Assembly (NCBI GenBank): GCA_030599585.1
Contig: JAUVNS010000007.1
Span: 128,001-192,000 of the forward strand
Direction of reading: 5' to 3'
From: Promethearchaeota archaeon
Lineage (GTDB): Archaea > Asgardarchaeota > Lokiarchaeia > Sigyniarchaeales > SOKP01
Length of the DNA stretch: 64,000 nt
The translations under genes were made by a program, and so were the position numbers. This document shows positions 964-16,204 of this stretch, one piece after another (position 1 is the stretch's first letter; every line of letters begins with the position of its first letter). The notes below the pieces were generated by a model, which saw only the letters and a list, made by a program, of their open reading frames with translations, ran no database searches and was not told the DNA's origin.

Positions 964-2466
964 TTATGTTCTTACCAAAACATCATGAGCATTCAAAAAT
1001 TCCTTCAAATCCTGGATTCTCAAAAGATTAAAATGAAATAAGGAAGCAGCTAATACGGCTTCAGCTCCGTTATTGATTGCTTCTTTAAAGTGCTCTTTAT
1101 TTCCAGCTCCCCCTGATGCGATCACAGGTACGGACACAATATCTGTAATACATCGGATCAAATCAAGATCATATCCCGAATTAGTACCATCTCTATCCAT
1201 GCTTGTAACTAATAGTTCTCCTGCCCCCTTATCAACAACTTTTTTTACCCATTCTAATACATCGAGTCCAGTAGGTTTTGTTCCGCTATGTGAATACACT
1301 TCCCATGATTCACCTTTTTTTTTTGCATCGATAGCGACAACGATTGATTGAGATCCGAATTTAATAGCACCTTTAGTAATTAGGTTTGGATCATTTATAG
1401 CTGCTGAATTTATACTTACTTTTTCTGCTCCTGCCTTGATAATTACCGTCATGTCCTCAATGGTTTTAATTCCGCCACCTACAGTTAATGGGATGAAGAT
1501 TTCTTCTGCTACAGATCGAATTGTATTAAGCATGCTTTTCCGTCCTTCTAGGGTTGCCGAAATGTCTAAGAAAACTAATTCGTCAGCACCATTTTCGTTA
1601 TAATATCGTGCTAAATCAACTGGATCTCCACTATCTCGTAGATTTTTGAATTTGACTCCCTTTACTACTCTTCCATTCTTTACATCTAGACAAGGGATAA
1701 TGCGTTTTACTAGTCGAGATTTGTGAAGATCGTCAAGGAAGGAGCTTAAAAGTTTGAGAGGAATATTTCGATTATATAATGCTTTTCCTACTATAACTCC
1801 ATCAGCATACTCTAGTGCTTTAACTACATCACCTATGCTTGAAATTCCGCCTGAGGCAATAATTCTGGTGTTAGGCTTTTTCTCTTTTTTCAATTCCACA
1901 TAGAGATTTGTATTTAAACCGGTTGAAGTCCCATCTTTCATTATGTCAGTGACAATAAAATCTTGAATTCCCAAATTCTCCAATTTAGAAAAAACTTTAA
2001 ATATATCTAAATTTGTATCAAATTGCCATCCCTTCGTACGGATCGTTTTATTGGAAGAATCTAATGCAATTGCAATCTTGCTTCTATACTGTTTAGATAA
2101 AATCTCTAAAAGTTTGTCATCATCAAACGCTATGGTACCTAAGATTATACGGTCAGTTCCCTGATCTATTAATTCTTCTATCGTTTCAATACTCCGTATT
2201 CCCCCCCCAATCTGAACTTTAATCCCAGCTTGTTTTGAAAGTTTAATCAGATTCAAAATAACGCGATAACTAAGATTATTCCGAAAATCTCCTTTTAATG
2301 CACCATCTAAATTAATAATATGCATCCACCAGGCACCAGCTTTGATGAATTGTCTTAGAATAGCTACGGGGTCATTAGAATATGTGATTTGTTTAGAAAA
2401 GTCACCCTGAGTAAGTCTGACTACTTTTCCCTCTCTTATATCCATGGCAGGAATTATAGTTTTTAT
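964..2466 (-). CDS. hisAF: Fused HisA (ProFAR isomerase) - HisF (IGP synthase cyclase subunit); start probably ATA at 2466 rather than ATG at 2445
   Basis: N-half has '[19 protein letters not shown]', 'QIGGGIRS', 'ASGGI'. C-half has '[17 protein letters not shown]', '[10 protein letters not shown]', 'TSMDRDGT'. No stop at the junction (~1715). The conserved IIPA lies upstream of the ATG. Confidence 0.93.
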
Positions 2467-3071
2467 GTTTGGTTCACCCGTTTTTCTAAAGAATTAACCC
2501 AATATTTCAATATATTTTCTCCAATTGTTTTACTTTTTTCTGGATGAAATTGTATTGCCAAAATTGTCCCATGCTTAAAAATAACTCCAAATTTTACTCC
2601 ATGTAAAGTAAAAGCAGTTATTATATTCTCATCTACCGCATCACAATAATATGTGTGGTTAAAATATGCAAAACCAGAGAAATACGGCTCTTTAAATGCA
2701 ATTACTCTGTTCCATCCCGTATGTGGAATACGAATAGAATTGCTGGGCTTTAACTTCTTCACTTTTCCAGAAAAAATGCCTAATCCCTCAATACCTGGAC
2801 TTTCTTCCGAATTATTGAATAATAATTGTAATCCTAAACATATTCCTAATGTTGGTTTTATTGGTATAATTTGTTTTAATAGAGTAAAGAGCCCTTTTCG
2901 CTTGAGCTCTCCCACAGCATCTCCAAAAGCTCCCACACCGGGTAGAACAATACCATTTGCTTTTTCTATCTCTTCTCTTTCATTAGTTATTATTACATCT
3001 GAATAATATCGTTGTAACGATCGTTGAACAGAGCGTAAATTTCCAATCCCATAGTCAATTATTGTAATCAT
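2463..3071 (-). CDS. hisH: Imidazole glycerol phosphate synthase glutaminase subunit HisH
   Basis: '[12 protein letters not shown]', 'LPGVGAF', 'GICLGLQ', 'QFHPEKS'. Confidence 0.97.
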
Positions 3072-3111
3072 AAATAACTCCTCGAATATTTAAAAAGCAT
3101 ACCTTATTGTT

Positions 3112-3717
3112 TCATAATATTCCCTTGGTAGATGGGATATTGCCTCTTCGTTTAGGATCTAACCGAGAAGCTTTATCCAGTGAAGATCCGAGAGCTTTAA
3201 AAACCGACTCTGCCATGTGGTGATCATCTTTTCCATAAAGCACTTTCACATGTAGCGTTATACTAGCGTGAATCGCAAATGTCTGTAAAAAATGTTCTAT
3301 TAACGTGAGAGGTATCAATTCGTCTTGATTCTTTCCAAAATATTTACCCGTCCAAGGGATATTAATACTCGAATAGGGGCGATTAGAAAAATCAACAACA
3401 ACTAATGCTAGGGCTTCATCCATAGGAACGTAAGAGTGTCCAATGCGGCAAATTCCTGATTTGTTTCCAATTGCTTGTTTAAACGCTTTTCCTAACACTA
3501 TACCTACATCCTCCATGGTATGATGAGTATCGACATGCAGATCCCCAGTAGCTTTCACCTCAATGTCAAAAATTCCATGAACTGCGATGTGATTTAACAT
3601 ATGATCGAAAAATCCTATACCTGTATTTATGTTTGCTTTTCCAGAGCCATCTAAGTTAAGCGAAATATTAATAGTGGATTCTTTCGTTTTTCTTTCTTGT
3701 TCTGATTGCCGATTCAT
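3112..3717 (-). CDS. hisB: Imidazoleglycerol-phosphate dehydratase (monofunctional)
   Basis: 'TGIGFFDHML', 'DTHHTMED', 'PMDEAL', 'DDHHMAE', 'PSTKG'. Confidence 0.97.
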   Translation of the reverse strand: MNRQSEQERKTKESTINISLNLDGSGKANINTGIGFFDHMLNHIAVHGIFDIEVKATGDLHVDTHHTMEDVGIVLGKAFKQAIGNKSGICRIGHSYVPMDEALALVVVDFSNRPYSSINIPWTGKYFGKNQDELIPLTLIEHFLQTFAIHASITLHVKVLYGKDDHHMAESVFKALGSSLDKASRLDPKRRGNIPSTKGIL

Positions 3718-3718
3718 T

Positions 3719-4843
3719 TTAATTTCCTCCTTTTAAAAATAATTTGATTTCATCAATAACTTTTACCATATTTTCTTGGAGTCCGATACTGATTCTTAGG
3801 TTGTTAATCATGTCTGATGACGAATAATACCTTACAAGAATGCCTTTTGAATAGAGATATTCGTAAAGGGTTTTTGGAATCTCTGGAGATTCGAAAGTGA
3901 GTAACACATAACACGCTTCACTTTGATGGATCCAAAAGTTTTTGTACTGATTTTGAACTATTATAAGTTGATTAATGAACCATTCTCTTATTTTTTTCAT
4001 TTCTGTAATTCTCTGATCAACTAGTGGGCTAGATAATGCCGCAAAAGCAGCTTTTTGACCAGCAATGTTAACATTATAAGGTTGTTTAATTGATACTATA
4101 ACTTTTCGAATCTCGTCTGGCATAATTCCATATCCCACTCGGAGCCCTCCTAAACCATAAGCCTTACTAAAAGTTCGAAGAACAACGAGATTCTCGTAAT
4201 TAGGAACCCACTTAGCAAGAGATTGAGAATCTGAGAACTCTATGTAAGCTTCATCAATGACCACTAAGACTGGTAGAGAGACTAGACGTTCAATGAAGCT
4301 TTCTGATACAACGCTTCCGTCTGGATTATTTGGTCGGGCTATAAAAATGATTTTAGACCTTAGCGCTTCTTCTAAAAATTGGTCTTCGTTAAGTACATAT
4401 TTAGCAAACGACTCTTTTTTGACTAATTTTTGAGAGACGGCTAAATTTTTAATTCCATTTACTTGAGCTAAGAACGAAATCATCCCAAATGTAGGGGATA
4501 CAGAGAGAATTTTGTCAGAAGGGTTAGCGTATGCTTTCATTATAAGTTCTATGAGCTCATCCGAACCTGAACTAATTATAAAATTTTTGGAGTCTATTTT
4601 TTCTTTTTTCCCTAAGACTTGTATTAAATTTGAACACAGCATGTCTGGATAATTACCAATATTTGTGAGGGACCTTAATGCTCCCAGAACTTCTGGAAGT
4701 GGATCGAAAGGATTTTCATTGCCATCAAGTTTTATTATTTTTTCAAGTGGGATATTGAGTTCTTCTGCTATGGTTTCTAAAGGTTTAACTCCACTATAAG
4801 TTTTTATTGAAGCAAGATGATCTGCAGTTTTGATTTTAGGGAT
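3719..4843 (-). CDS. hisC: Histidinol-phosphate aminotransferase; true start lies upstream of the ORF-track ATG (4642), probably ATC at 4843
   Basis: 'GSDELI', 'PNNPDG', 'IDEAYIEF', 'LRTFSKAYGLGGLRVGY'. The frame stays open for 67 codons upstream of 4642 and contains the conserved 'IIKLDGNENPF' and 'NYPD' motifs. Confidence 0.93.
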   Translation of the reverse strand: MPKIKTADHLASIKTYSGVKPLETIAEELNIPLEKIIKLDGNENPFDPLPEVLGALRSLTNIGNYPDMLCSNLIQVLGKKEKIDSKNFIISSGSDELIELIMKAYANPSDKILSVSPTFGMISFLAQVNGIKNLAVSQKLVKKESFAKYVLNEDQFLEEALRSKIIFIARPNNPDGSVVSESFIERLVSLPVLVVIDEAYIEFSDSQSLAKWVPNYENLVVLRTFSKAYGLGGLRVGYGIMPDEIRKVIVSIKQPYNVNIAGQKAAFAALSSPLVDQRITEMKKIREWFINQLIIVQNQYKNFWIHQSEACYVLLTFESPEIPKTLYEYLYSKGILVRYYSSSDMINNLRISIGLQENMVKVIDEIKLFLKGGN

Positions 4844-6168
4844 TAGTATCTCCTCCTAGCCGCTTCTGAGTGAGCAGTAAGTTCTTCGCTAATAGCTAAT
4901 TTCTCAGCTAAAGGAGCTATAGATTTAACTGTTTTAGTATCTAAAGCTATAAGACTAGTAATTTTGAGAAAATCTATTACTGACAATGGAGACGAAAATT
5001 TAGCGGCACCACCCGTTGGCATTACATGACTGGGACCAGCAACATAATCTCCCATCACTTCACAAGATGATTCTCCGAGGAAAATTCCTCCCGCATTTTT
5101 AATTCGGGGTAAGATTTTTTCTTGATCCTTCATAATGATAGATAAGTGCTCTGGGGCAAAATCGTTAATTGCTGATATAGCATCTTTAGTGTTAGTTACT
5201 AAAATTATTCCGCCATTATTTTCTATTGCATATCGAGCTTTTTCAGCGCGAGACAGTTTTTGTATTTGCTCTTCAACTGAATCTCTGACTATATTTGCGA
5301 TATCTTTACTTGTTGTAAGTAAAATTGGAATTGATAAAAAATCGTGTTCAGCTTGTGCGAGTAAATCAGAAGCAATTAAATGAGGATCCGCAGATTCATC
5401 GGCTAATATAACTGCCTCTGTAGGACCAGTGATACCATCAATTCCTACAATTCCATATACTTCCCGCTTAGCTAAGGTAACGAAGATATTACCGGGGCCA
5501 ACAATTTTATTAACTTTTGGAACTGTTTCAGTACCAAAAGCTAGTGCTGCAATTGCTTGAGCTCCTCCTATCTGGAAAACCCTAAGGTTAACTTTATAAT
5601 CACGCATTAAATTACAAGTAGCTAAAATTATAGGAGAAATTGGAGACGGACTTACAATTATTACTTCTTCAACTCCCGCTACAATTGCAGGGCAAACGCT
5701 ATGAATAACCGTAGATGGGAGCGGAGCGGATCCTCCAGGCACGTAAAATCCGACTCTTTGGATCGGAGTTATTATCTGCCCTAAAGTTCCTCCTAAATCA
5801 CTTGTAGTCCAAGAAGAAGTAGGTTGTTTTTTGTGAAACGCTAATATTCTATGTATCGTTTTATCTAAAACCTCTTTAATTTTAGTGTCGATAGAATTTA
5901 ACGCTGCTTCCATTTGCTCTACTTCTATTTCAATTGAATTAGTTATATCATTTTTTTCTAATTTTTTAGTCCATTCAATTAGAGCTAGATCGCCTTTTTT
6001 TATAACATCGTCAATTATACTTTTAACAACTTCTTGTGGTGTTAAGGGTTTACCGAAAATCTTAATAATCTGCTCGTTAATTTGGGGTGATGCTGGAGTA
6101 TTAACAATTGATTTGCGTATTAGTATAGATTTTTGTGCTTCCTCTAAGGAATATATTGGGATCATCAA
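4843..6168 (-). CDS. hisD: Histidinol dehydrogenase
   Basis: 'YVPGG', '[14 protein letters not shown]', 'GPGNIFV', 'DLLAQAEHD', 'APEHL', '[15 protein letters not shown]'. Confidence 0.97.
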
Positions 6169-7172
6169 TTTTCCTCCAAATTCTTAAGTAAATTTTTGTA
6201 GCGTTTAGGTTCCTCTTCAAAGATATAAAGAGTTGGAGCTACCACTACACCACTACCACCTATTTCGCGTAAACCTTTTATGGCATCTTGTAATTTTTCT
6301 TTTTCGACGATAATGTGAATCGCATACATTTTCTCTCCTTTTTTAGTATAAACCGATGATACCGTTGGTCCATCAAGTCCTTCTAAACTTTTTTTAGAAA
6401 AAATCGATTCAGCGATATCTTTACCATTTTCTCCCCTCATATTTACAAAGACAGACACGAATCTCTTTGCTCTGAGTGTTGCTTCAAAATATTCAATCAA
6501 TCCACGAGTGACCTTCATAACAGCTTCATTTCCTAAAGCAGTTCGATTCCCAATCAACACTGCCTCAGAAGTCATTATTTTCCCTCCACTAATTCTTTTT
6601 AATCTATTATCTTTTAGAGTCTTTCCCGTAGAGACAAGATCAACGATTATTTCGCTATAGCCAAGCTCAGGATAAACCTCTAAGGATCCATTTCCGCTCA
6701 CTATCTCATAAGAAATTCCACACGAAGTTAAAAATTGCTTAGTAAGTTTTGGAAACTTAGTTGCAACTCTAATATGTGAATTTTTTCCTTTTTGTTTTAT
6801 TTCTTCAATTGAATATTCCAACCAATCTTCAGGAACAGCAATTTCAAGACTGCATTTTCCAAAACCTAATGCATCATGTACAACTACTACATCTTTTTTC
6901 GTATCAGGCAAATACTCACGAACTAAGTCATATCCAACTATTCCAAGCTCTATCGACCCATTAAGGACACCTCTGACAATATCCACTTGGCGTTGATACA
7001 CCAATTGGAGATCAATGGGACCATTTATAGAGCCAATATACTGTCTGTTATTCCTTTGCACGTTAAACCCACATTCTTTCAAGAAATCTTGGGTTTCTTT
7101 TTCCATTCTCCCTTTTGAAGGTATGGCTAGTCTCACTTGCCGTGATTTATAATAAAACTCTTCTTCTTTCAC
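6165..7172 (-). CDS. hisG: ATP phosphoribosyltransferase, long form with C-terminal regulatory domain
   Basis: '[10 protein letters not shown]', 'RVATKFP', '[17 protein letters not shown]'; GTG start behind GGAGG. Confidence 0.95.
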
Positions 7173-8080
7173 TTGTTTCGCCTCCCTAATTCATTTATAA
7201 TTTCACTTAGAGTAATTTTTTGTGTTGCCATTAAGACTAGGACAAAATATGTTAAGTCAGCAATTTCCCAGATAAGGTTATCTCTGTCAGTAAAATTTAT
7301 CACTTCTAAGCATTCTTCTTTGATTTTTGAAAGTAATAAATTATTGTCCTCAGCTAATCTTTTAGTGTATGATTCTTCCACTGAAGAATCCTCTATTCGG
7401 TTATTTATTAGATCATAGAGAACATTTAATGAAAAATCCTTATCAAAAAAACAGGAATATGTCCCGGTGTGGCAAGCATATCCAGTTTGTTGGACTTTAA
7501 ACAGGAGAGAGTCGTTATCACAGTCATAATGGATTTTTTTTACTGCTTGACTGTTTCCTGATTCCTCTCCTTTTATCCATAGTTTATTTCTCGATCTACT
7601 GAAATAGGTTGCCTTCCGGGTGAGTACTGTATTTTTCAACGATTCTTTAGAAGAATATGCGAGCATTAGTACAGTATTGTTCTGATCTTGTACTATTGTC
7701 GGAATAAGTCCTGATCCTTTCTCGAAATCGAGAAGATTTAACAGGCTATTATCTATTAGTGAGTAATTCATTTTTGACTTAAAATTAAAGGTTTCATATC
7801 GGTTTGGTAATGATAGAGAAATAGGTTTATAGCCTTTTTTGTATAGCTGCTTTTTCATTTCATTCTGAGCTTCTTTTATCTCAAACCTTAGATCTATATT
7901 TTGAGAAATTTCTTTCAAATTTTTATTGTTCCCAATCAGTGTATCGAAATCTTGCTCATTAATTTTTAAAACTAAAGTAAAGATAACATCCCAATTCCTT
8001 TTTAAAAATACCTCTTTAATAAACTGAGTAATTCCCCCTACTGGTTCCAAGTCCTTTTTTTCCACCTTTAATATTAACAT
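7169..8080 (-). CDS. hisIE: Bifunctional PR-AMP cyclohydrolase / PR-ATP pyrophosphatase with a ~110-aa N-terminal extension
   Basis: 'GLIPTIVQD', '[16 protein letters not shown]', 'DCDNDSLL', '[10 protein letters not shown]', then HisE 'SYTKRL...KIKEE...EIADLTY'. Confidence 0.93.
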
Positions 8081-8093
8081 AAAATACCCTCAA

Positions 8094-8196
8094 AACTGAA
8101 TTAGATTTCAGTTCAATTAAATTCCAATGAATACATGATAAAAAAATTATCTTAATTCATCGGAATTATTTATAATGTAGATGATGATGTTCCGAT
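8094..8196 (-). promoter_or_regulatory. Candidate his attenuator: alternative RNA helices between the leader ORF and hisIE
   Basis: On the minus-strand RNA, AUCGGAA (8196-8190) is complementary to UUCCGAU (8165-8159). AAUUCCGAUGAAU (8167-8155) pairs with AUUCAUUGGAAUU (8132-8120), 13 bp with one G-U, enclosing GAUAA-UUUUU-UUAUC. Hairpin AACUGAA-AUCUAA-UUCAGUU (8113-8094) abuts the GAGGG SD of hisIE. Confidence 0.65.
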
Positions 8197-8276
8197 CTGA
8201 TAACATTAAAGCTATTCGATCCATCAACAAAGACTAAACTCAATAGATTAACACCCTTAGTTTTTAGAAATATCAT
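8166..8276 (-). CDS. Putative his operon leader peptide MIFLKTKGVNLLSLVFVDGSNSFNVIRSEHHHLHYK (alternative TTG start at 8243 behind GGGTG)
   Basis: Translated by hand: ATG at 8276, CAT CAT CAT CTA CAT cluster at 8189-8175, TAA at 8168-8166. Same strand as hisIE and 85 nt upstream of it. Confidence 0.75.
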   Translation of the reverse strand: MIFLKTKGVNLLSLVFVDGSNSFNVIRSEHHHLHYK

Positions 8277-8457
8277 ATTAATTCACTATTGAGTCCTTAT
8301 TTTAGAGATAACTATACTTGTATTAACTATTTTATGCACCGTAGCCTAAAAAAGTTAACTATATTTGGTGTATTGAAAAAATTATAATTTTAACAATTAT
8401 TATGTTAGTTTAGATTCAATAATAATATTTTTAGAAAATATAGATGGAGAAAGTCTT

Positions 8458-9498
8458 ATGGTAAAAGGAAATAAGTATGGAACGCATAGAGTTATTGAAC
8501 CTAAGGGGACACTTCCTCAACCTGCGTTTAAAATTTCAAATAATGTGACGATTTATGACAACGAGATATTAATCGATGTCGATTATTTGAACATCGACTC
8601 TGCAAGTTTCACTCAATTAAAAGAAGAAGCGGAAGGAAATCTAGATAAGATTAAGAATAAGATTATGGAAATCGTTCAAGAAAGAGGAAAAATGCAAAAC
8701 CCAGTTACGGGTTCGGGAGGGATGTTAATAGGGAAGGTAGAAATGATAGGTGATAACTTAATTGATAAAATAGAATTACAGGTAGGAGATAAAATAGCAT
8801 CATTAGTATCTCTTTCATTAACTCCTCTCAAAATTGAAAAAATCTTAGACATTAATCCAGATATAGATCGAGTTAAGATTGAGGGAAAAGCTATCCTTTT
8901 TGAAAGCGGAATTTACGCAAAATTGCCTGGAGATATGGAAGCAACTCTAGCGTTAGCAGCACTCGATGTTGCTGGAGCTCCCGCACAAGTAAAGAATCTG
9001 GTGAAGGAAGGCGATAATGTTCTAATTCTTGGTGCTACGGGCAAATCTGGACTCATGTGTTCATATATGGCTAAAAAAATGGCTGGTAATAAAGGAAAAA
9101 TCATAGGACAGGCTAGAAACGAGACTCGAGCCGAATTTCTTAGAGAAACCGAGTTTTGCCATGAAGTTATTGTCGCAGATGTATTAAATCCGATAAATAT
9201 CTTAGAAGAAACCCTACAAGCTAATGGTGGGAATGAAGTAGATATAACCATTAATTGTTTGAGCATCCCCAATTCAGAATTATCTTCCATCCTTCCCGTG
9301 AGAGATGAAGGTATTGTATATTTCTTTTCAATGGCCACCAGTTTCACTAAAGCAGCTTTGGGAGCTGAGGGTATAGGAAAAGATGTGACCATGATAATAG
9401 GTAATGGATATACTAAAAATCATGCGCAAATTACCTTAGATTTATTACGAGAATCTGGAACTCTTAGAAGAATTTTTGAGGAAAAATATATAAAATAA
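8458..9498 (+). CDS. kdd: L-erythro-3,5-diaminohexanoate dehydrogenase
   Basis: 'KYGTHRVIEPKGTLPQPA', 'NIDSASF', 'QNPVTGSGGML', 'ALDVAGAPAQ'; located near the kam genes. Confidence 0.95.
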   Translation: MVKGNKYGTHRVIEPKGTLPQPAFKISNNVTIYDNEILIDVDYLNIDSASFTQLKEEAEGNLDKIKNKIMEIVQERGKMQNPVTGSGGMLIGKVEMIGDNLIDKIELQVGDKIASLVSLSLTPLKIEKILDINPDIDRVKIEGKAILFESGIYAKLPGDMEATLALAALDVAGAPAQVKNLVKEGDNVLILGATGKSGLMCSYMAKKMAGNKGKIIGQARNETRAEFLRETEFCHEVIVADVLNPINILEETLQANGGNEVDITINCLSIPNSELSSILPVRDEGIVYFFSMATSFTKAALGAEGIGKDVTMIIGNGYTKNHAQITLDLLRESGTLRRIFEEKYIK

Positions 9499-9545
9499 AA
9501 GTTAAATCAATATCTAAAAAAAAAAGAAATTTTAATATTAGTTTA

Positions 9546-9869
9546 TTATCCGGGTGGAGTTTGTCCAATTGATGAATAGGCTTCTTCTATAGTGGCCCAA
9601 GTCTCTATTGAATATTTAAATCCAGGGACTGTTAAATACATGTTTAACATAGCCATAGCGCGTCTTCTAATTGCTTCTAATTTCCCTTCCTTTACCAGCG
9701 TTACATTAAGTGATTTTATACCATCCATATCGGCATTTATAGCATTAGGCACAAGAGTTTCCCCAAGACTATCATCTGGTGGAAATTTTTTATTAACTTC
9801 AATACCTTTTTTTATCATCTCTGCTGTAGACTCACCAGGCCAACGAATAAAGGTAACTATATAAGGCAT
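9546..9869 (-). CDS. Hypothetical small protein
   Basis: 107-aa ORF with GAGG upstream; 'KFPPDDSLGETLVP'; U-tract after the stop. Confidence 0.7.
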   Translation of the reverse strand: MPYIVTFIRWPGESTAEMIKKGIEVNKKFPPDDSLGETLVPNAINADMDGIKSLNVTLVKEGKLEAIRRRAMAMLNMYLTVPGFKYSIETWATIEEAYSSIGQTPPG

Positions 9870-10106
9870 TTATATTTCCTCTTTTGATTATTAAATTTTT
9901 ATACGGATTTTAAAAAACTCGCAATTAAAATTAATTCAGATCTCTTATTTAAATATTTACATTTTTGTCAATGGTATCTAATTTAGCCTATAATTTTAAA
10001 AATTGTAGAAAATAAACTAAGAATAGTGGAGTTAGAGATTAATCAATATATTTTTATTGGCTTCCTAGGAATATAATCTAAAAATTATGCAAAATAATTA
10101 AAATAG

Positions 10107-11231
10107 CTACTTTTCAATCAATCTTCCAATAGGATAAGATCCATACTTCTTAACAGTATCAATCATTGCTTTAACATTTTCATATTTACAGGTACTCAAA
10201 ATATCTGAACCCGCGCCTAAGATGAATCCCCCACCTTTAGCGGCATCCTGAAGAGCTTGTTTGGTTGCTTCTATTGTGGCCTCTATAGAGCCGTATGTTA
10301 AAACATAAGTGGCAGAAATATTACCGATAAGACAGATGTCTGCTCCGTATTCTTCTTTGAGAGGCTTTAACCTCATCCCCGATTCGTACTCTAAAGGATC
10401 AATCCCATCTACCCCAGAATTAATAAGATATGGCATAGTTTCCGTAACGTCTCCATCTGAATGAATAAGTAATTTAGCACCGTGCTTATGTGCATTCTTT
10501 GCTAGTTCTTTGTAAACTGGAGTTACAATTTCATTCCAATACTTAGGATTAAAAATGGTGCTTCCCTTTAGCGCCCAATCATCGCAAATAAATACCAAAT
10601 CAATTTCTTTTTCAAAAAAACAGTTCTGTAATTCTTTTGTAATTCGCCCTAAAGCTTTAGCGAGTTCTTTAACTAAATTAAAGTGTTTCCGGATCATATA
10701 TGCAAACTTGTTTATCCCTATCATTGACCAAGACGCGAACGCAACGGAACCTCCAGTCGGAATTGTAACCAAACCTTTTTGAAGATAACTGTCCCAAATT
10801 TTTTTAAATGATTTAAAGTGAATATCTCCAGCAGGTTCCCATGTATTGATATAAGCGATCCATTCTTTCAGTAATTCTGGTGTCTTTAAAACCCCATCCC
10901 GATACCAATCGCCTTCGTAATAGCTAGCCCATTCTGTGACACCGGAGGACTTTATATTATATTCTTTTAAAATTTCTTCTGGAACTTCAGGCTTTTTATG
11001 AGAGTGCGTTCTAATTCTATCGTAATGATACCAAATTGAATCAAATCCCATATGAATTGCTGCCTCATACATGATATGCTTAGAAAGATGTTTACTTTCA
11101 TCAATTCCCATTTTTTCTACCACTTTTTTTGTGAATGGGTAATCGAAGAATTGTGCCAATGTGGGGACACGGTCAGGTTCTTCGTGCTCTAAGGTTTTAA
11201 TTATTCTTTCATGTACGTTCATGTCAATCAT
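10107..11231 (-). CDS. Uroporphyrinogen decarboxylase / MtaA-CmuA superfamily protein
   Basis: 'HERIIKTLEHEEPDRVP', 'ICDDWA', 'IHSDGDV', 'LIGNIS', 'GGGFILGAG'. Confidence 0.85.
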   Translation of the reverse strand: MIDMNVHERIIKTLEHEEPDRVPTLAQFFDYPFTKKVVEKMGIDESKHLSKHIMYEAAIHMGFDSIWYHYDRIRTHSHKKPEVPEEILKEYNIKSSGVTEWASYYEGDWYRDGVLKTPELLKEWIAYINTWEPAGDIHFKSFKKIWDSYLQKGLVTIPTGGSVAFASWSMIGINKFAYMIRKHFNLVKELAKALGRITKELQNCFFEKEIDLVFICDDWALKGSTIFNPKYWNEIVTPVYKELAKNAHKHGAKLLIHSDGDVTETMPYLINSGVDGIDPLEYESGMRLKPLKEEYGADICLIGNISATYVLTYGSIEATIEATKQALQDAAKGGGFILGAGSDILSTCKYENVKAMIDTVKKYGSYPIGRLIEK

Positions 11232-11404
11232 TACAAGTATTTTTCAGTGAGAGATAATAAATACATTAAATTTTATTTTCAAATAAATTTTGTGAGGTAT
11301 AAGACGAACATGAACCTTTAGAATATTTCTCCCTCAAACTCCTAAAACTTTAACAAATAAAAAAAATTAATTACAATAATAAATTAAGATTTCTGGAATT
11401 TATT

Positions 11405-12643
11405 ATGAAAGTAAATAGGCGAATGGAACTATTTGGGAAAGTAAGCGACGAAGATTGGAATAACTGGCGATGGCAATTTAGAAATAGGATTACTACTCTC
11501 GAGGATCTCAAAGAATTCATTCCGCTAACAAAGGAGGAAGATGATCCTAGTATCTTGGAAAAGATGAGAATGGCTATCACCCCCTATTATTTATCATTAA
11601 TCGATCCTCATGATCCATACGATCCCATTCGCAAACAAGCAATCCCTACAATCCATGAACTCCATAAATCTTCTGCTGATTTAGTAGATCCGCTTCACGA
11701 AGATGTTGACTCTCCCACTCCTGGGTTAACTCATAGATATCCAGATCGAGTATTATTTTTAATTACGGAAAACTGTTCTATGTACTGTAGACACTGCACT
11801 CGAAGGAGATTTGCAGGCCATCACGATAAAGCACCTCCAAAGGATCAGATAGATAAATGTATAGATTATATTCAGGAAACACCCGCAATTAGAGATGTCT
11901 TATTATCAGGAGGCGATGCGATGCTTATCTCAGATAAATTATTAGAGGACATCTTGATAAAGTTAAAAGAAATCTCGCATGTAGAAATCGTTCGGTTAGG
12001 TTCTAGAAGTCCGGTTGTTATGCCACAACGTATTACTCCTGATTTATGCGAGATGCTTGAACAATATCATCCCATATGGTTTAATACTCACTTCAACCAT
12101 CCGAATGAAATTACTGAAGACTCTAAGAGAGCATGTGAAATGTTAGCCGATGCCGGTATCCCTCTCGGAAACCAATCAGTCCTATTAAGAGGTGTAAATG
12201 ATTGTATCCATGTTATGAAAAAATTAGTCCAAGAACTAGTAAAAATTAGAGTTCGACCGTATTACATTTACCAATGCGATTTATCCGTAGGATTAGGGCA
12301 TTTTAGAACAAGTGTTGCTCAAGGAATTGAAATTATTGAGGGTCTAAGAGGACATACATCTGGTTTATGTGTCCCAACATTTGTTGTAGATGCTCCGGGT
12401 GGCGGAGGGAAAATTCCTGTAATGCCTGATTACACAATCTCTCAAGGAAATTCGAGAGTTGTTTTAAGAAATTTTGAGGGAGTTATTACGACGTACGAGG
12501 AACCAACTAATTACATACCAGATTGTCATTGCGAAGATTGCGAAAAACAAATAGGGGTTTCAGCATTATTAAGTGGTCAAAAGATGACTATTGAACCCGA
12601 TGATTTAGAAAGAAACTTAAGAAAAAAAAAACTAAGTAAATAG
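11405..12643 (+). CDS. kamA: Lysine 2,3-aminomutase (radical SAM/PLP)
   Basis: 'WNNWRWQ', 'THRYPDR', CxxxCxxC 'CSMYCRHCTRRR', 'DAPGGGGKIP'. Confidence 0.97.
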   Translation: MKVNRRMELFGKVSDEDWNNWRWQFRNRITTLEDLKEFIPLTKEEDDPSILEKMRMAITPYYLSLIDPHDPYDPIRKQAIPTIHELHKSSADLVDPLHEDVDSPTPGLTHRYPDRVLFLITENCSMYCRHCTRRRFAGHHDKAPPKDQIDKCIDYIQETPAIRDVLLSGGDAMLISDKLLEDILIKLKEISHVEIVRLGSRSPVVMPQRITPDLCEMLEQYHPIWFNTHFNHPNEITEDSKRACEMLADAGIPLGNQSVLLRGVNDCIHVMKKLVQELVKIRVRPYYIYQCDLSVGLGHFRTSVAQGIEIIEGLRGHTSGLCVPTFVVDAPGGGGKIPVMPDYTISQGNSRVVLRNFEGVITTYEEPTNYIPDCHCEDCEKQIGVSALLSGQKMTIEPDDLERNLRKKKLSK

Positions 12644-12748
12644 TAACTTCTAGTATAGTATCTTTGAACATCGGCAATTTTAAAATTTTGGCTCAGTTAT
12701 TTTAGCATATTTTAAAATCATACCCTCTTTTAATTATTTGAAGCACAG

Positions 12749-13801
12749 ATGTTGTCTGGTAATGAGGACTTTCCTACTCTTCTAATCAACGCCATAAAGA
12801 AGAATAAAGTCATATCAATAATTGGTTTATCTAAAAATGTAAGTAAAACTACCACATTAAATCACATAATTAATTTACTAAAGGATAAGCAAACAATTGG
12901 AGTCACATCCATAGGTCGAGACGGAGAACCCTACGATGCGATTACAGAACTCCCAAAACCTAAGATTATAGTTGAAAAAGGAACAATCTTTGCTACAGCA
13001 GAAGATTCTTTAAAGAATAGCGATATAGAGACCGTACTTATTGAAAGCACTAATTTCACTACGCCACTCGGGATCATCAATGTTTACAAAGCAAAAAATA
13101 AAGGTTATGTTGAATTAGCTGGCCCTTCAATGAATAAGCAATTAAAGCACCTCTGTAATGACATGTTAAAGATAGGTTGTGATGTGATTTTTATTGATGG
13201 TGCATTTGATAGGAGATCATTTGCAACACCCCTTATTTCTGATGCAACAATATTATCCACGGGAGCGTCTGTATCCAGAAACATGGAGAAAGTTGTTGAT
13301 CAAACTTCCCATATTTATGATTTATTTACCTTAGATGTAATTAAAGACGATAAAATCAGGAAAATCAGCAAAGATATCTTACTCACTGCTCAAGTAGGAA
13401 TTATAAATGATGACTATTCGACTAAGAAATTAGAAGAATCTACTGCTTTGGGATCGTCTAAAGTAATCTTTGACCAAATAACGAAAAACGCTAAATATCT
13501 GGTAATAAAGGGAGCGATAACCGATAACATTTTAGATGAATATGTAACTAATAAAAAAGTAAAAGACTTTAATGTAATTGCCACAGATCCTACTAAATTA
13601 TTTATTAGTAAGCAAGTTTTCTATAAATTTATAAAAAAGGGGGGTCGCTTAAAGGTGCTAGATCGAATTAATTTAATTGCAATTACGGTTAATCATACAT
13701 CTCCACTAGGGTATGAATTTGAAAATAACCAGTTCATGAGGTTATTACAAGAGAGAATTAACGTTCCTATATTCAATCTTGGTCCTTGTGACAACTTATA
13801 A
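12749..13801 (+). CDS. kamB: KamB-like protein (lysine 5,6-aminomutase accessory/reactivase subunit)
   Basis: 'ISIIGLSKNVSKTTTLN', 'TSIGRDGE', 'IDGAFDR', 'ILSTGA'; sits between kamA and kamD as in clostridial clusters. Confidence 0.75.
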   Translation: MLSGNEDFPTLLINAIKKNKVISIIGLSKNVSKTTTLNHIINLLKDKQTIGVTSIGRDGEPYDAITELPKPKIIVEKGTIFATAEDSLKNSDIETVLIESTNFTTPLGIINVYKAKNKGYVELAGPSMNKQLKHLCNDMLKIGCDVIFIDGAFDRRSFATPLISDATILSTGASVSRNMEKVVDQTSHIYDLFTLDVIKDDKIRKISKDILLTAQVGIINDDYSTKKLEESTALGSSKVIFDQITKNAKYLVIKGAITDNILDEYVTNKKVKDFNVIATDPTKLFISKQVFYKFIKKGGRLKVLDRINLIAITVNHTSPLGYEFENNQFMRLLQERINVPIFNLGPCDNL

Positions 13802-13846
13802 TTTAAACTTTAGATTATTAAAATTATCTTTAGAGATGAAACTTAC

Positions 13847-15415
13847 ATGAATAAATTAAATTTGGATTTTTCATTCGTTGAAACTGCGAGGAAATTAGCT
13901 CGGAATATTGCTAATGATACTCAAAAGTTCATTGATAAACACACTACTACTTCAATTGAAAGAACGATTTGTAGATTATTAGGGATCGATGGGGTTGATG
14001 AATTTGGAGTTCCATTACCTAACTTAGTAGTAGATCACATTCAACAAAAAGAACATATCAATAATGGCATTGCCATGTACCTTGGGAATACCATTTTACA
14101 TACTAACTTATCTCCTCAAAATATTGCAGAAAAAATATCTAAAAACCAATTAAACATGACAGAATTTCCCTTGAACGACATATCTGAGATAAAAAATGTA
14201 TTATCATCTATAGTCCAGAAAAACTTGGATATAATTAAGCGAAACAAGCAAGATAGAGAAGAATTAATTAATAGATATGGAGAAAAAACGGAACCACTAA
14301 TATATTTGATAGTTGCTACTGGAAATATTTTTGAAGACATGGTTCAAGCACAAGCAGCAGCAAGACAAGGTGCCGATGTTATCGCAGTAATACGCTCTAC
14401 GGGGCAAAGTTTATTAGATTATGTTCCTTATGGTGCCACAACAGAAGGTTTTGGAGGCACTTATGCAACGCAAGAAAATTTCCGTCTTATGAGGTCAGCC
14501 TTAGATAAGGTTAGCGAAGAAGAAGGTAGATATATTAGGCTCACTAACTACTGTTCGGGACTTTGTATGCCAGAAATTGCTGCTATGGGAGCATTTGAAA
14601 GATTAGATATGATGTTAAATGATGCGTTATATGGAATTTTATTTAGGGATATAAACATGCAAAGAACGATAATCGATCAATATTTTTCAAGGATGATAAA
14701 TGCATATGCTGGAGTAATCATCAATACAGGGGAGGACAATTATCTTACCACTGATGACGCTTATGATGCTGCTCATACAGTGTTGGCATCACAATTCATT
14801 AACGAACAATTTGCGAAATTAGCCGGTTTAAGTGAAGAGCAAATGGGATTAGGACATGCGTTTGAAATGAACCCTGAGATGGAAAATGGATTTGTTTACG
14901 AACTTGCACAAGCGCAAATGGCAAGAGAAATATTTCCAAGTGCTCCTTTGAAATACATGCCTCCAACAAAATATATGACGGGAAACATTTTTAAGGGTCA
15001 CGTTCAAGATGCGTTATTCAATATCATTACAATTCTCACAAATCAGAGAATTCACTTACTCGGAATGTTAACCGAAGCAATTCACACGCCATTTATGTCA
15101 GATCGGGCTTTATCCATTGAAAATGCGAAATATATTTTTAAAAATATGAAAAATTTAGGAGAAGAAATTACGTTTAAAGAAGGCGGGATAATACAACAAC
15201 GCGCAAACGAAGTATTGAAGAAAGCTCTTGTACTTCTAATAAAAATAGAAAGGGAGGGTTTATTCAAGACAATTGAAAAAGGGATTTTCGCGCAGATAAA
15301 AAGGCCAATTGATGGTGGGAAAGGATTAGATGGTGTAATTCCTAAAAGCAAAGAATATTTTAATCCTTTCTTGGAAATCATGTCAAAAGAACTACACTTA
15401 GGAGGCGAAAAATAA
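13847..15415 (+). CDS. kamD: D-lysine/beta-lysine 5,6-aminomutase alpha subunit
   Basis: 'IVATGNIFED', 'GQSLLDYVPYGATTEGFGGT', 'NYCSGLCMPEIA', 'KYMPPTK'. Confidence 0.97.
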   Translation: MNKLNLDFSFVETARKLARNIANDTQKFIDKHTTTSIERTICRLLGIDGVDEFGVPLPNLVVDHIQQKEHINNGIAMYLGNTILHTNLSPQNIAEKISKNQLNMTEFPLNDISEIKNVLSSIVQKNLDIIKRNKQDREELINRYGEKTEPLIYLIVATGNIFEDMVQAQAAARQGADVIAVIRSTGQSLLDYVPYGATTEGFGGTYATQENFRLMRSALDKVSEEEGRYIRLTNYCSGLCMPEIAAMGAFERLDMMLNDALYGILFRDINMQRTIIDQYFSRMINAYAGVIINTGEDNYLTTDDAYDAAHTVLASQFINEQFAKLAGLSEEQMGLGHAFEMNPEMENGFVYELAQAQMAREIFPSAPLKYMPPTKYMTGNIFKGHVQDALFNIITILTNQRIHLLGMLTEAIHTPFMSDRALSIENAKYIFKNMKNLGEEITFKEGGIIQQRANEVLKKALVLLIKIEREGLFKTIEKGIFAQIKRPIDGGKGLDGVIPKSKEYFNPFLEIMSKELHLGGEK

Positions 15416-16204
15416 ATGGGTGGTGGACTCTATTCTACAAAAAAAAAAGAATATGACAAGAATTTAGATCTAACTAATATCAGACCGTATGGAGATACAA
15501 TGAACGATGGAAAAATGCAGGTTAGTTTTACTCTTCCTGTAGATGATGGAGAAAAAGCTATATTTGCAGCATTAGAATTGGGTAGAAAGATGGGGATAGA
15601 AGAACCTTCAGTAGCATATCATATATCTTTAGATAAGGGATTCACTTATTTTGTGTTATATGGACGTCTTAAACATTCGATTGATTATACTAAAATAAAA
15701 GTAGAATCTGTAGAAGTTGAAGCGATGACGATTAAAGAAATAAATGATTTTATTAAAGCCGAAATAAAACGTAAATTAGTAGTTATTGGCGCTACAACCG
15801 GGACTGATGCACACACGGTAGGAATCGATGCTATTATGAACATGAAGGGATTTGCTGGTCATTATGGACTAGAGCGATATGAGATGATTGAAGCCTATAA
15901 TTTTGGAAGCCAGGTAACAAATGAAGAATTCGTAAAAAAAGCAATAGATCTTGACGCTGACGTACTTCTTGTTTCTCAAACTGTAACGCAGAAAGATATC
16001 CATGTGAGAAATTTAACTAATCTAGTCGATCTACTGGAAGCTGAAGAGTTAAGAGACAAAATCATTTTAGTCTGTGGTGGTCCAAGAATTTCGAACGAAC
16101 TTGCGAAAGAATTAGGATTTGATGCTGGTTTTGGCCCTAACACTTTTTCTGAGAATGTAGCAAGTTATTTTGTGAAAGAAATTTATAATAGAAAATATAA
16201 ATGA
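15416..16204 (+). CDS. kamE: Lysine 5,6-aminomutase beta subunit (B12/PLP-binding)
   Basis: 'PYGDTMNDGK', DxHxxG 'GTDAHTVGIDAIMNMKG'. Confidence 0.97.
   Translation: MGGGLYSTKKKEYDKNLDLTNIRPYGDTMNDGKMQVSFTLPVDDGEKAIFAALELGRKMGIEEPSVAYHISLDKGFTYFVLYGRLKHSIDYTKIKVESVEVEAMTIKEINDFIKAEIKRKLVVIGATTGTDAHTVGIDAIMNMKGFAGHYGLERYEMIEAYNFGSQVTNEEFVKKAIDLDADVLLVSQTVTQKDIHVRNLTNLVDLLEAEELRDKIILVCGGPRISNELAKELGFDAGFGPNTFSENVASYFVKEIYNRKYK

Follow-up and report, generated by a model that had tools for sequence, protein, structure and literature searches.

The window (the whole 64,000-nt stretch of DNA analyzed) was found to carry a histidine biosynthesis operon on its minus strand. Its first gene is hisIE (7169–8080, minus strand; over the cut-off of NF002747), with the Shine-Dalgarno (SD) sequence GAGGGT at 8086–8091 (minus strand), where a G-rich word is present at the same place in all aligned relatives. 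This gene is followed by hisG, hisD, hisC, hisB, hisH and a fused hisA-hisF (964–7172, minus strand), an order shared with same-genus genomes. The N-terminal extension of HisIE, of ~115 amino acids (7736–8080, minus strand), had no confident Pfam match and is linked by a weak BLAST chain to the HisA of HisA-HisIE fusions in relatives; judged by these comparisons it is probably a decayed HisA domain. Versions of 100–210 amino acids in relatives suggest progressive decay. The frame of hisC is open upstream of its first ATG (4642), and translation probably begins at the non-canonical codon ATA at 4849 (4847–4849, minus strand), behind GGAGG and overlapping the end of hisD.

Divergent from the operon, kdd begins at 8458 and opens a lysine-fermentation cluster (8458–16204, plus strand) with a lysine 2,3-aminomutase-like gene and lysine 5,6-aminomutase-like genes. 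Synteny of the his operon with kdd extends to genomes of the same genus. In several of these (L031, L036, L039, and L043) the operon is a mosaic, with identities to the window of 45–97% across hisIE, hisG, and hisD-hisAF, which suggests recombination of alleles; in such operons the leader described below goes with the hisIE allele.

The taxonomy of the contig, which the first-pass annotation had left to be confirmed, was found to be archaeal and Asgard. The 16S of the genome scored 1458 bits against the archaeal model, the tetranucleotide profile of the contig correlates with those of the contigs carrying 16S, aCPSF1 and ribosomal proteins (r 0.95–0.98), and the closest named homologs among the best 120 HisG matches bear Promethearchaeota/Lokiarchaeota and other Asgard labels. 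In the whole genome, ARAGORN called tRNAs with the anticodons CTA (labelled Pyl) and TCA (labelled SeC) as well as unusual AAA and TAT anticodons; intron handling may lie behind some of these odd calls.

Upstream of hisIE is an ORF of 36 codons followed by TAA (8166–8276, minus strand; ATG at 8276, stop at 8168–8166), the translation of which was checked. An SD-like AGTGA (8283–8287, minus strand) lies 6 nt before the ATG and matches the 3' end of the genome's 16S (GATCACCTCC). A TTG at 8243, behind GGGTG at 8256–8252, is an in-frame alternative start and cannot be excluded. The putative sensor tract consists of four His codons in five (8175–8189, minus strand), all of them CAT (8189–8181 and 8177–8175), and ends two codons before the stop, which is separated by 85 nt from the hisIE ATG at 8080 (minus strand). 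The first-pass annotation had described this ORF with both of its starts, its His cluster and its distance from the first his gene, and all of this holds exactly. A candidate BRE/TATA-like element, AACTTTTTTAG (8346–8360, minus strand), is situated ~70 nt upstream of the leader ATG and could be aligned in ~11 relatives; no start site has been mapped and its role as a promoter is inferred. The leader peptide had no match in Pfam.

The likelihood of such a tract arising by chance was gauged by scoring terminal clusters of any amino acid in 4191 short ORFs ending 20–250 nt upstream of 2427 genes (3850 genes were called in the genome). At least four His in five codons near the ORF end were found in only one of the 4191, namely the window leader. 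The top score of the scan, in which no prior knowledge was used, went to an ORF with 11 Leu in its last 12 codons, ending 91 nt before leuA.

Conservation of the His leader and cognate leaders at other genes

Within the class Lokiarchaeia, an upstream ORF with a His tract (3–8 His near the stop) was found at hisIE of the window type in 16 species in three genera and on eight metagenome contigs. The distance from its stop to the hisIE start is 75–92 nt, and 85–87 nt in 12 of the 16. The 16 aligned leaders are 36–54 codons long and differ in length by whole codons (the window leader is 12 codons shorter, in frame, than its nearest kin). All 16 have stops in both other frames, and in all 16 the start codon lies behind an AGTGA/GGTGA-like word. 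The related species are not independent, and the leader tallies given here are counts, not statistical tests.

The pooled pN/pS of the leaders is 0.64. Frame and tract are conserved while the peptide drifts, which is the pattern expected if the frame and the tract matter and the peptide does not. In close relatives CAT accounts for 78 of the 80 His codons, compared with 65% genome-wide, and this near uniformity indicates that a constraint on RNA structure contributes; CAC is mixed in among the His codons of distant leaders. It had been predicted that related genomes would show conserved His clusters with synonymous changes, and the clusters are indeed conserved in the 16 species, but synonymous variation is scarce.

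Three other genomes carry a separate His-tract ORF, unrelated in its flanks, before operons that open with hisC, and His leaders were also found at hisIE in two genomes of Asgard families outside the class (L289 and L294). No leader is present in ten close relatives with another hisIE allele (~53% identical), in which the intergenic region is short. His leaders were likewise absent from 20 stand-alone hisI loci, ~30 archaeal-type hisG-hisD loci, the archaeal-type hisG-hisD-hisC loci examined and three long-HisG operons. In genome G055, another SD with an ATG that is not in the hisC frame occurs ~25 nt upstream of the hisC start (L044:3463–3490, plus strand).

Comparable ORFs, rich in the cognate amino acid, precede other amino acid genes. 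A poly-Leu ORF ends 87–125 nt upstream of leuA in 30/30 loci of the family and also occurs before leuA in several genomes of the neighboring family, with all six Leu codons used; no Leu leader was found at leuA in families f3–f7. The archaeal-type leuS has a Leu-rich leader 102–192 nt upstream of the match in 13/13 loci (L356–L368), located at G000:C21:128621 (minus strand) in the window genome. Ile-rich ORFs precede cimA (citramalate synthase) in 22 of 23 cases, ending IIGII, and ileS in five of six, where they belong to one of the genome's two ileS-like genes (G000:C40:259305, minus strand, and G000:C28:118769, plus strand, respectively; loci L325–L355). Arg-rich ORFs were identified upstream of argJ in 7/8 loci. 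Both the Leu and the Arg tracts use 5–6 synonymous codons.

A Trp-rich ORF lies upstream of trpD in 15 of the 18 loci of the class and in three Asgard families outside it (L213, L216, and L217); taken together, His and Trp leaders extend to five Asgard families that do not belong to Lokiarchaeia. The trpD SD can become part of the post-stop hairpin in L213; with translational control, this would reverse the polarity. An ORF-like insert of ~80–90 codons directly upstream of trpD was observed in L155, L156, L160, L163, L164, and L169, and in the last three of these the Trp leader lies upstream of the insert.

These loci bear out in part the proposal that other amino acid operons would carry cognate leaders: leaders were found for leu, arg, cimA, ileS and leuS in the window genome and for trp in relatives, but no Thr leader was found before hom (17 loci) and none before pheA in the window genome. 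No trpA or ilvC was found in that genome with the queries used. Short ORFs ending 72–115 nt before the hom unit in L271, L272, and L247 have three Met codons near their end, a possible Met leader or chance. When the upstream regions of his, leu, arg, trp and thr genes were scored against all 20 amino acids at a strict threshold, the diagonal of the matrix was His 16/16, Leu 28/29, Trp 10/17 and Arg 3/8. The his, leu, arg and trp regions were each enriched for their own amino acid, His being the only enriched residue at his loci. The Leu/Ile background is high in AT-rich DNA; nonetheless, the Leu/Ile tracts end at or near the stop, fall within a narrow distance range and have common terminal motifs.

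It could be argued that the ORF is not a sensor at all, being instead a small His-rich metal-binding peptide, or that the CAT repeat is kept only as an RNA structure or a protein-binding DNA site. The CAT bias (78/80 against 65%), the pN/pS of only 0.64 and the pairing of His codons with upstream or post-stop RNA in some leaders are compatible with this. Such explanations do not account for an enriched residue that varies by pathway (His, Leu, Ile, Arg, Trp), for Leu and Arg tracts written in 5–6 synonymous codons, for a frame that stays open through length changes of 3–54 nt while both others are closed, or for the reappearance of His tracts, amid unrelated flanks, in front of operons that start with different genes (hisIE, hisC), and they are regarded as very improbable.

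Predicted RNA structure and the proposed sensing step

The window leader folds better than shuffled sequences (z = −3.5). A helix of 19 bp, P1 (8236–8296, minus strand), appears in both the MFE and the centroid structure and pairs codons 8–14 with the SD flank of the leader and the AU of its AUG start codon. Both strands of P1 are retained in 14 aligned relatives, despite a loop 12 nt longer in some. Its role as a helix that shuts off the leader is inferred from this predicted fold. A helix closing the SD is found in His, Leu (30/34 above control) and Arg leaders, and in the Leu and Arg leaders its partner strand lies just 5' of the cognate tract.

Beyond the tract, a 13-bp hairpin, P3 (8120–8167, minus strand), begins inside the stop codon and has a U7 tract (8146–8140) in its loop or inner stem, while an 8-bp hairpin, P4 (8093–8114, minus strand), is directly 5' of the hisIE SD. 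In P3, 96.8% of cells pair and four pairs are changed on both sides; the values for P4 are 93.4% and two. The resulting six pairs changed on both sides were not reached in any of 500 shuffles (0/500), and slid controls were far weaker. The post-stop helix starts at a median of ~4 nt (His) or ~5 nt (Leu) past the last cognate codon. With a ribosome footprint assumed from established values, the 5' arm of P3 is free when the ribosome stalls on a cognate codon and covered when it is at the stop. There is no overlap between P4 and P3, and P4 is retained whether the ribosome stalls or reaches the stop.

Other elements of the classical design were not recovered. The scan for terminators of the bacterial type found none and did not score P4 as an intrinsic terminator, no overlapping 2:3/3:4 helix pair was detected, and Rfam showed no leader family at any score in the window and ten related loci. 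A 1:2 hairpin between the cognate codons and the post-stop RNA is clear in 5/11 Trp leaders and in three hisC-type His leaders, weak in the window-type His leaders and absent in Leu and Arg leaders.

The His leader is a real, conserved feature, the function of which is inferred in the absence of translation or regulation data. That it acts in cis as a ribosome-read sensor of tRNA-His charging is considered very likely, a rating that rests on what is established about leader peptides together with the sequence and RNA evidence given above. The claim of leader-peptide control in an Asgard archaeon is supported by the conserved His cluster, the Asgard origin of the contig and the cognate leaders at other genes, and falls short in that no terminator hairpin with a U-run was found.

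Possible outputs of the leader

The model favored here would start from a promoter near 8350, from which a single transcript would carry leader and operon (inferred). A ribosome would load on the nascent leader, after which P1 would close the leader's SD; the helix is predicted and conserved, its role inferred. As P1 closes over the leader's own SD, mainly the first ribosome would count, which points to a co-transcriptional decision. When His-tRNA is scarce the ribosome would wait on the CAT codons (the geometry follows from the sequence, the stalling is inferred), with its leading edge at the start of P3, so that P3 and P4 could fold, cover most of the 85-nt untranslated spacer up to the hisIE SD and let transcription continue. 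In the least certain step, also inferred, a ribosome that reaches the stop when His is ample would block the 5' arm of P3 and leave naked U-rich RNA behind RNA polymerase, where aCPSF1/FttA would cleave it and transcription would end before or early in hisIE. The same layout would serve the Leu, Ile, Arg and Trp genes. As a whole, with premature termination of the aCPSF1 type as its output, the model is tentative and is given slightly less than an even chance of being right.

An aCPSF1 (TIGR03675) was identified in the genome at 885 bits, over the cut-off. Archaeal terminators are reported to be U-tracts read by aCPSF1 without hairpins, and the Lokiarchaeal aCPSF1 terminates at U4 tracts with no need for a hairpin (PMC8716108). 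FttA binds U-rich nascent RNA, and its competition with a coupled ribosome has been hypothesized (PMC11616081). Factor-dependent termination is favored, as an inference, because U-tract termination is hairpin-free, aCPSF1 is present and a leader RBS that closes itself suits a first-round decision. Exposure of U with the ribosome at the stop rises in 16/19 His leaders; exposed U4 tracts do not rise in these leaders, and the number of U4 tracts per spacer is 1.5 (His) and 1.3 (Leu) vs. 1.2 in ordinary upstream DNA. A general model of U-tract exposure was not supported, as exposure falls in 22/35 Leu leaders. These calculations concern equilibrium folding only, and kinetics are outside their scope.

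The same sensor could have a translational output. A ribosome at the stop would melt P3, and the freed strand would extend P4 over the hisIE SD and AUG and block initiation, with the downstream genes silenced by polarity, as in mycobacterial polycysteine leaders. P4 abuts the hisIE SD, the MFE folds predicted for several relatives mask both SD and AUG, and with the ribosome at the stop the energy needed to open the RBS goes up by ~2 kcal/mol on average and is raised in 16/18 His leaders. This occlusion is no greater than that by a shuffled freed strand (mean z −0.25 for His and Leu, equilibrium folding), so no selected anti-SD was found, and a specific RBS switch was rejected on the ground that the two states differ no more than in shuffled controls. 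By inference, P1 is also at odds with this output, since it closes the leader's own RBS, unlike translational attenuators, which are translated repeatedly. On balance a translational output is unlikely, though it remains a possibility to be reckoned with.

Very weak support for it comes from a leader-containing RNA contig that ends ~50 nt inside hisC in two contig sets of a relative (one study). The His leader is present in all of four metatranscriptome contig sets (one study) of a G055-like organism, each time on the deepest of the contigs compared in that run, and in two runs the leader-containing RNA contig spans ~3226–3540 of L044, one of the two being chimeric. RNA contigs cannot show ends, strand or level, and were therefore not counted as evidence.

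A third possible output of this sensor is mRNA stability, in which a stalled ribosome and intact P3/P4 would block 5'-to-3' decay or endonucleolytic entry. The erm mRNAs of Bacillus are stabilized by stalled ribosomes. The polarity of such an output is right, and it would need neither a terminator nor an anti-SD, which fits the negative terminator, anti-SD and U-exposure results; furthermore, aCPSF1 can act as a 5'-3' exonuclease (PMC11616081). Decay data are lacking, however, and stability alone does not explain the fixed start of the helix relative to the last cognate codon, and this output is considered more doubtful than the translational one.

Origin, significance and comparison with known systems

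The first-pass annotation had offered import with the operon or independent evolution as the origin of the leader. His leaders accompany only the long-HisG type of operon and none occurs at the archaeal-type hisG-hisD-hisC loci examined, a distribution that would fit import with the operon. No bacterial donor was identified, the best 120 HisG matches carrying only Asgard names or none. Import cannot be the whole account, since the archaeal-type leuS also carries a leader. The leader on that gene, and RNA folds that are not related from one pathway to the next, suggest a native capacity that was put to use repeatedly, an inference drawn without a tree.

Taken together, it is conceivable, if somewhat short of probable, that cognate-codon leaders (His, Leu, Ile, Arg, Trp) evolved repeatedly across Asgard genomes, at biosynthetic and synthetase genes alike, with premature termination by aCPSF1 as their output. 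The protein is the archaeal ortholog of eukaryotic CPSF73/INTS11, and Asgard is the archaeal phylum closest to eukaryotes. If true, attenuation in these archaea would be gated by the ribosome and rest on eukaryote-like transcription machinery, unlike bacterial terminator switches. Leaders at seven gene sets would show that Asgard archaea couple ribosome and RNA polymerase for regulation, would provide natural substrates for the competition of aCPSF1 and ribosome on nascent RNA, and would have implications for the evolutionary roots of eukaryotic uORF control.

The paradigm of leader-peptide attenuation comes from bacteria. With enterobacterial hisL, leuL, trpL and ilvL (the Rfam His_leader family among them), the Asgard leaders have in common a short ORF ahead of the gene in which cognate codons cluster near the stop, helices that start at the stop, a helix closing the RBS of the leader itself, and use at aminoacyl-tRNA synthetase genes as well as biosynthetic ones, pheST being the bacterial synthetase case. 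They differ in being archaeal and in lacking an Rfam match, a terminator hairpin with a U-run and an overlapping 2:3/3:4 pair; the Asgard His leaders are also longer (36–54 codons), with tracts that run up to the stop. The hisL-type layout ascribed to the window leader therefore applies to the sensing step (ORF, tract and post-stop helix) and not to a full attenuator, there being no terminator hairpin.

In methanogens, a single Trp codon in TrpY was reportedly once proposed as a sensor of tRNA charging, a design different from that of the Asgard leaders. Short translated ORFs are known from archaeal 5' UTRs through ribosome profiling of Haloferax and Methanosarcina, and none is described with cognate codon tracts or amino acid sensing in the passages considered here (PMC7261190, PMC10117724, PMC11456600). 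In the literature searched, which covers subscription journals poorly, archaeal uORFs were found but no archaeal cognate-codon leader or attenuation, in agreement with the earlier statement that ribosome-mediated attenuation is not established in archaea. The mycobacterial polycysteine sORFs resemble the Asgard ORFs in having the tract at the very 3' end and in recurring ahead of several genes in one pathway (a "ribulon"), but they differ in being leaderless and in having a codon tract that itself base-pairs with the SD downstream (bioRxiv 10.1101/834739), whereas the Asgard ORFs possess an SD and yielded no sign of a specific anti-SD.

At Salmonella mgtL/mgtA and E. coli tnaC, the position of a ribosome on a uORF sets the access of a termination factor, Rho, without an intrinsic terminator. 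The logic of the termination model is like that of these Rho-dependent systems, with aCPSF1/FttA, a nuclease of the CPSF73 family whose involvement has not been shown, as the factor. By this analogy, the nearest logic to that of the Asgard leaders may be found in Rho-dependent leaders such as mgtL.
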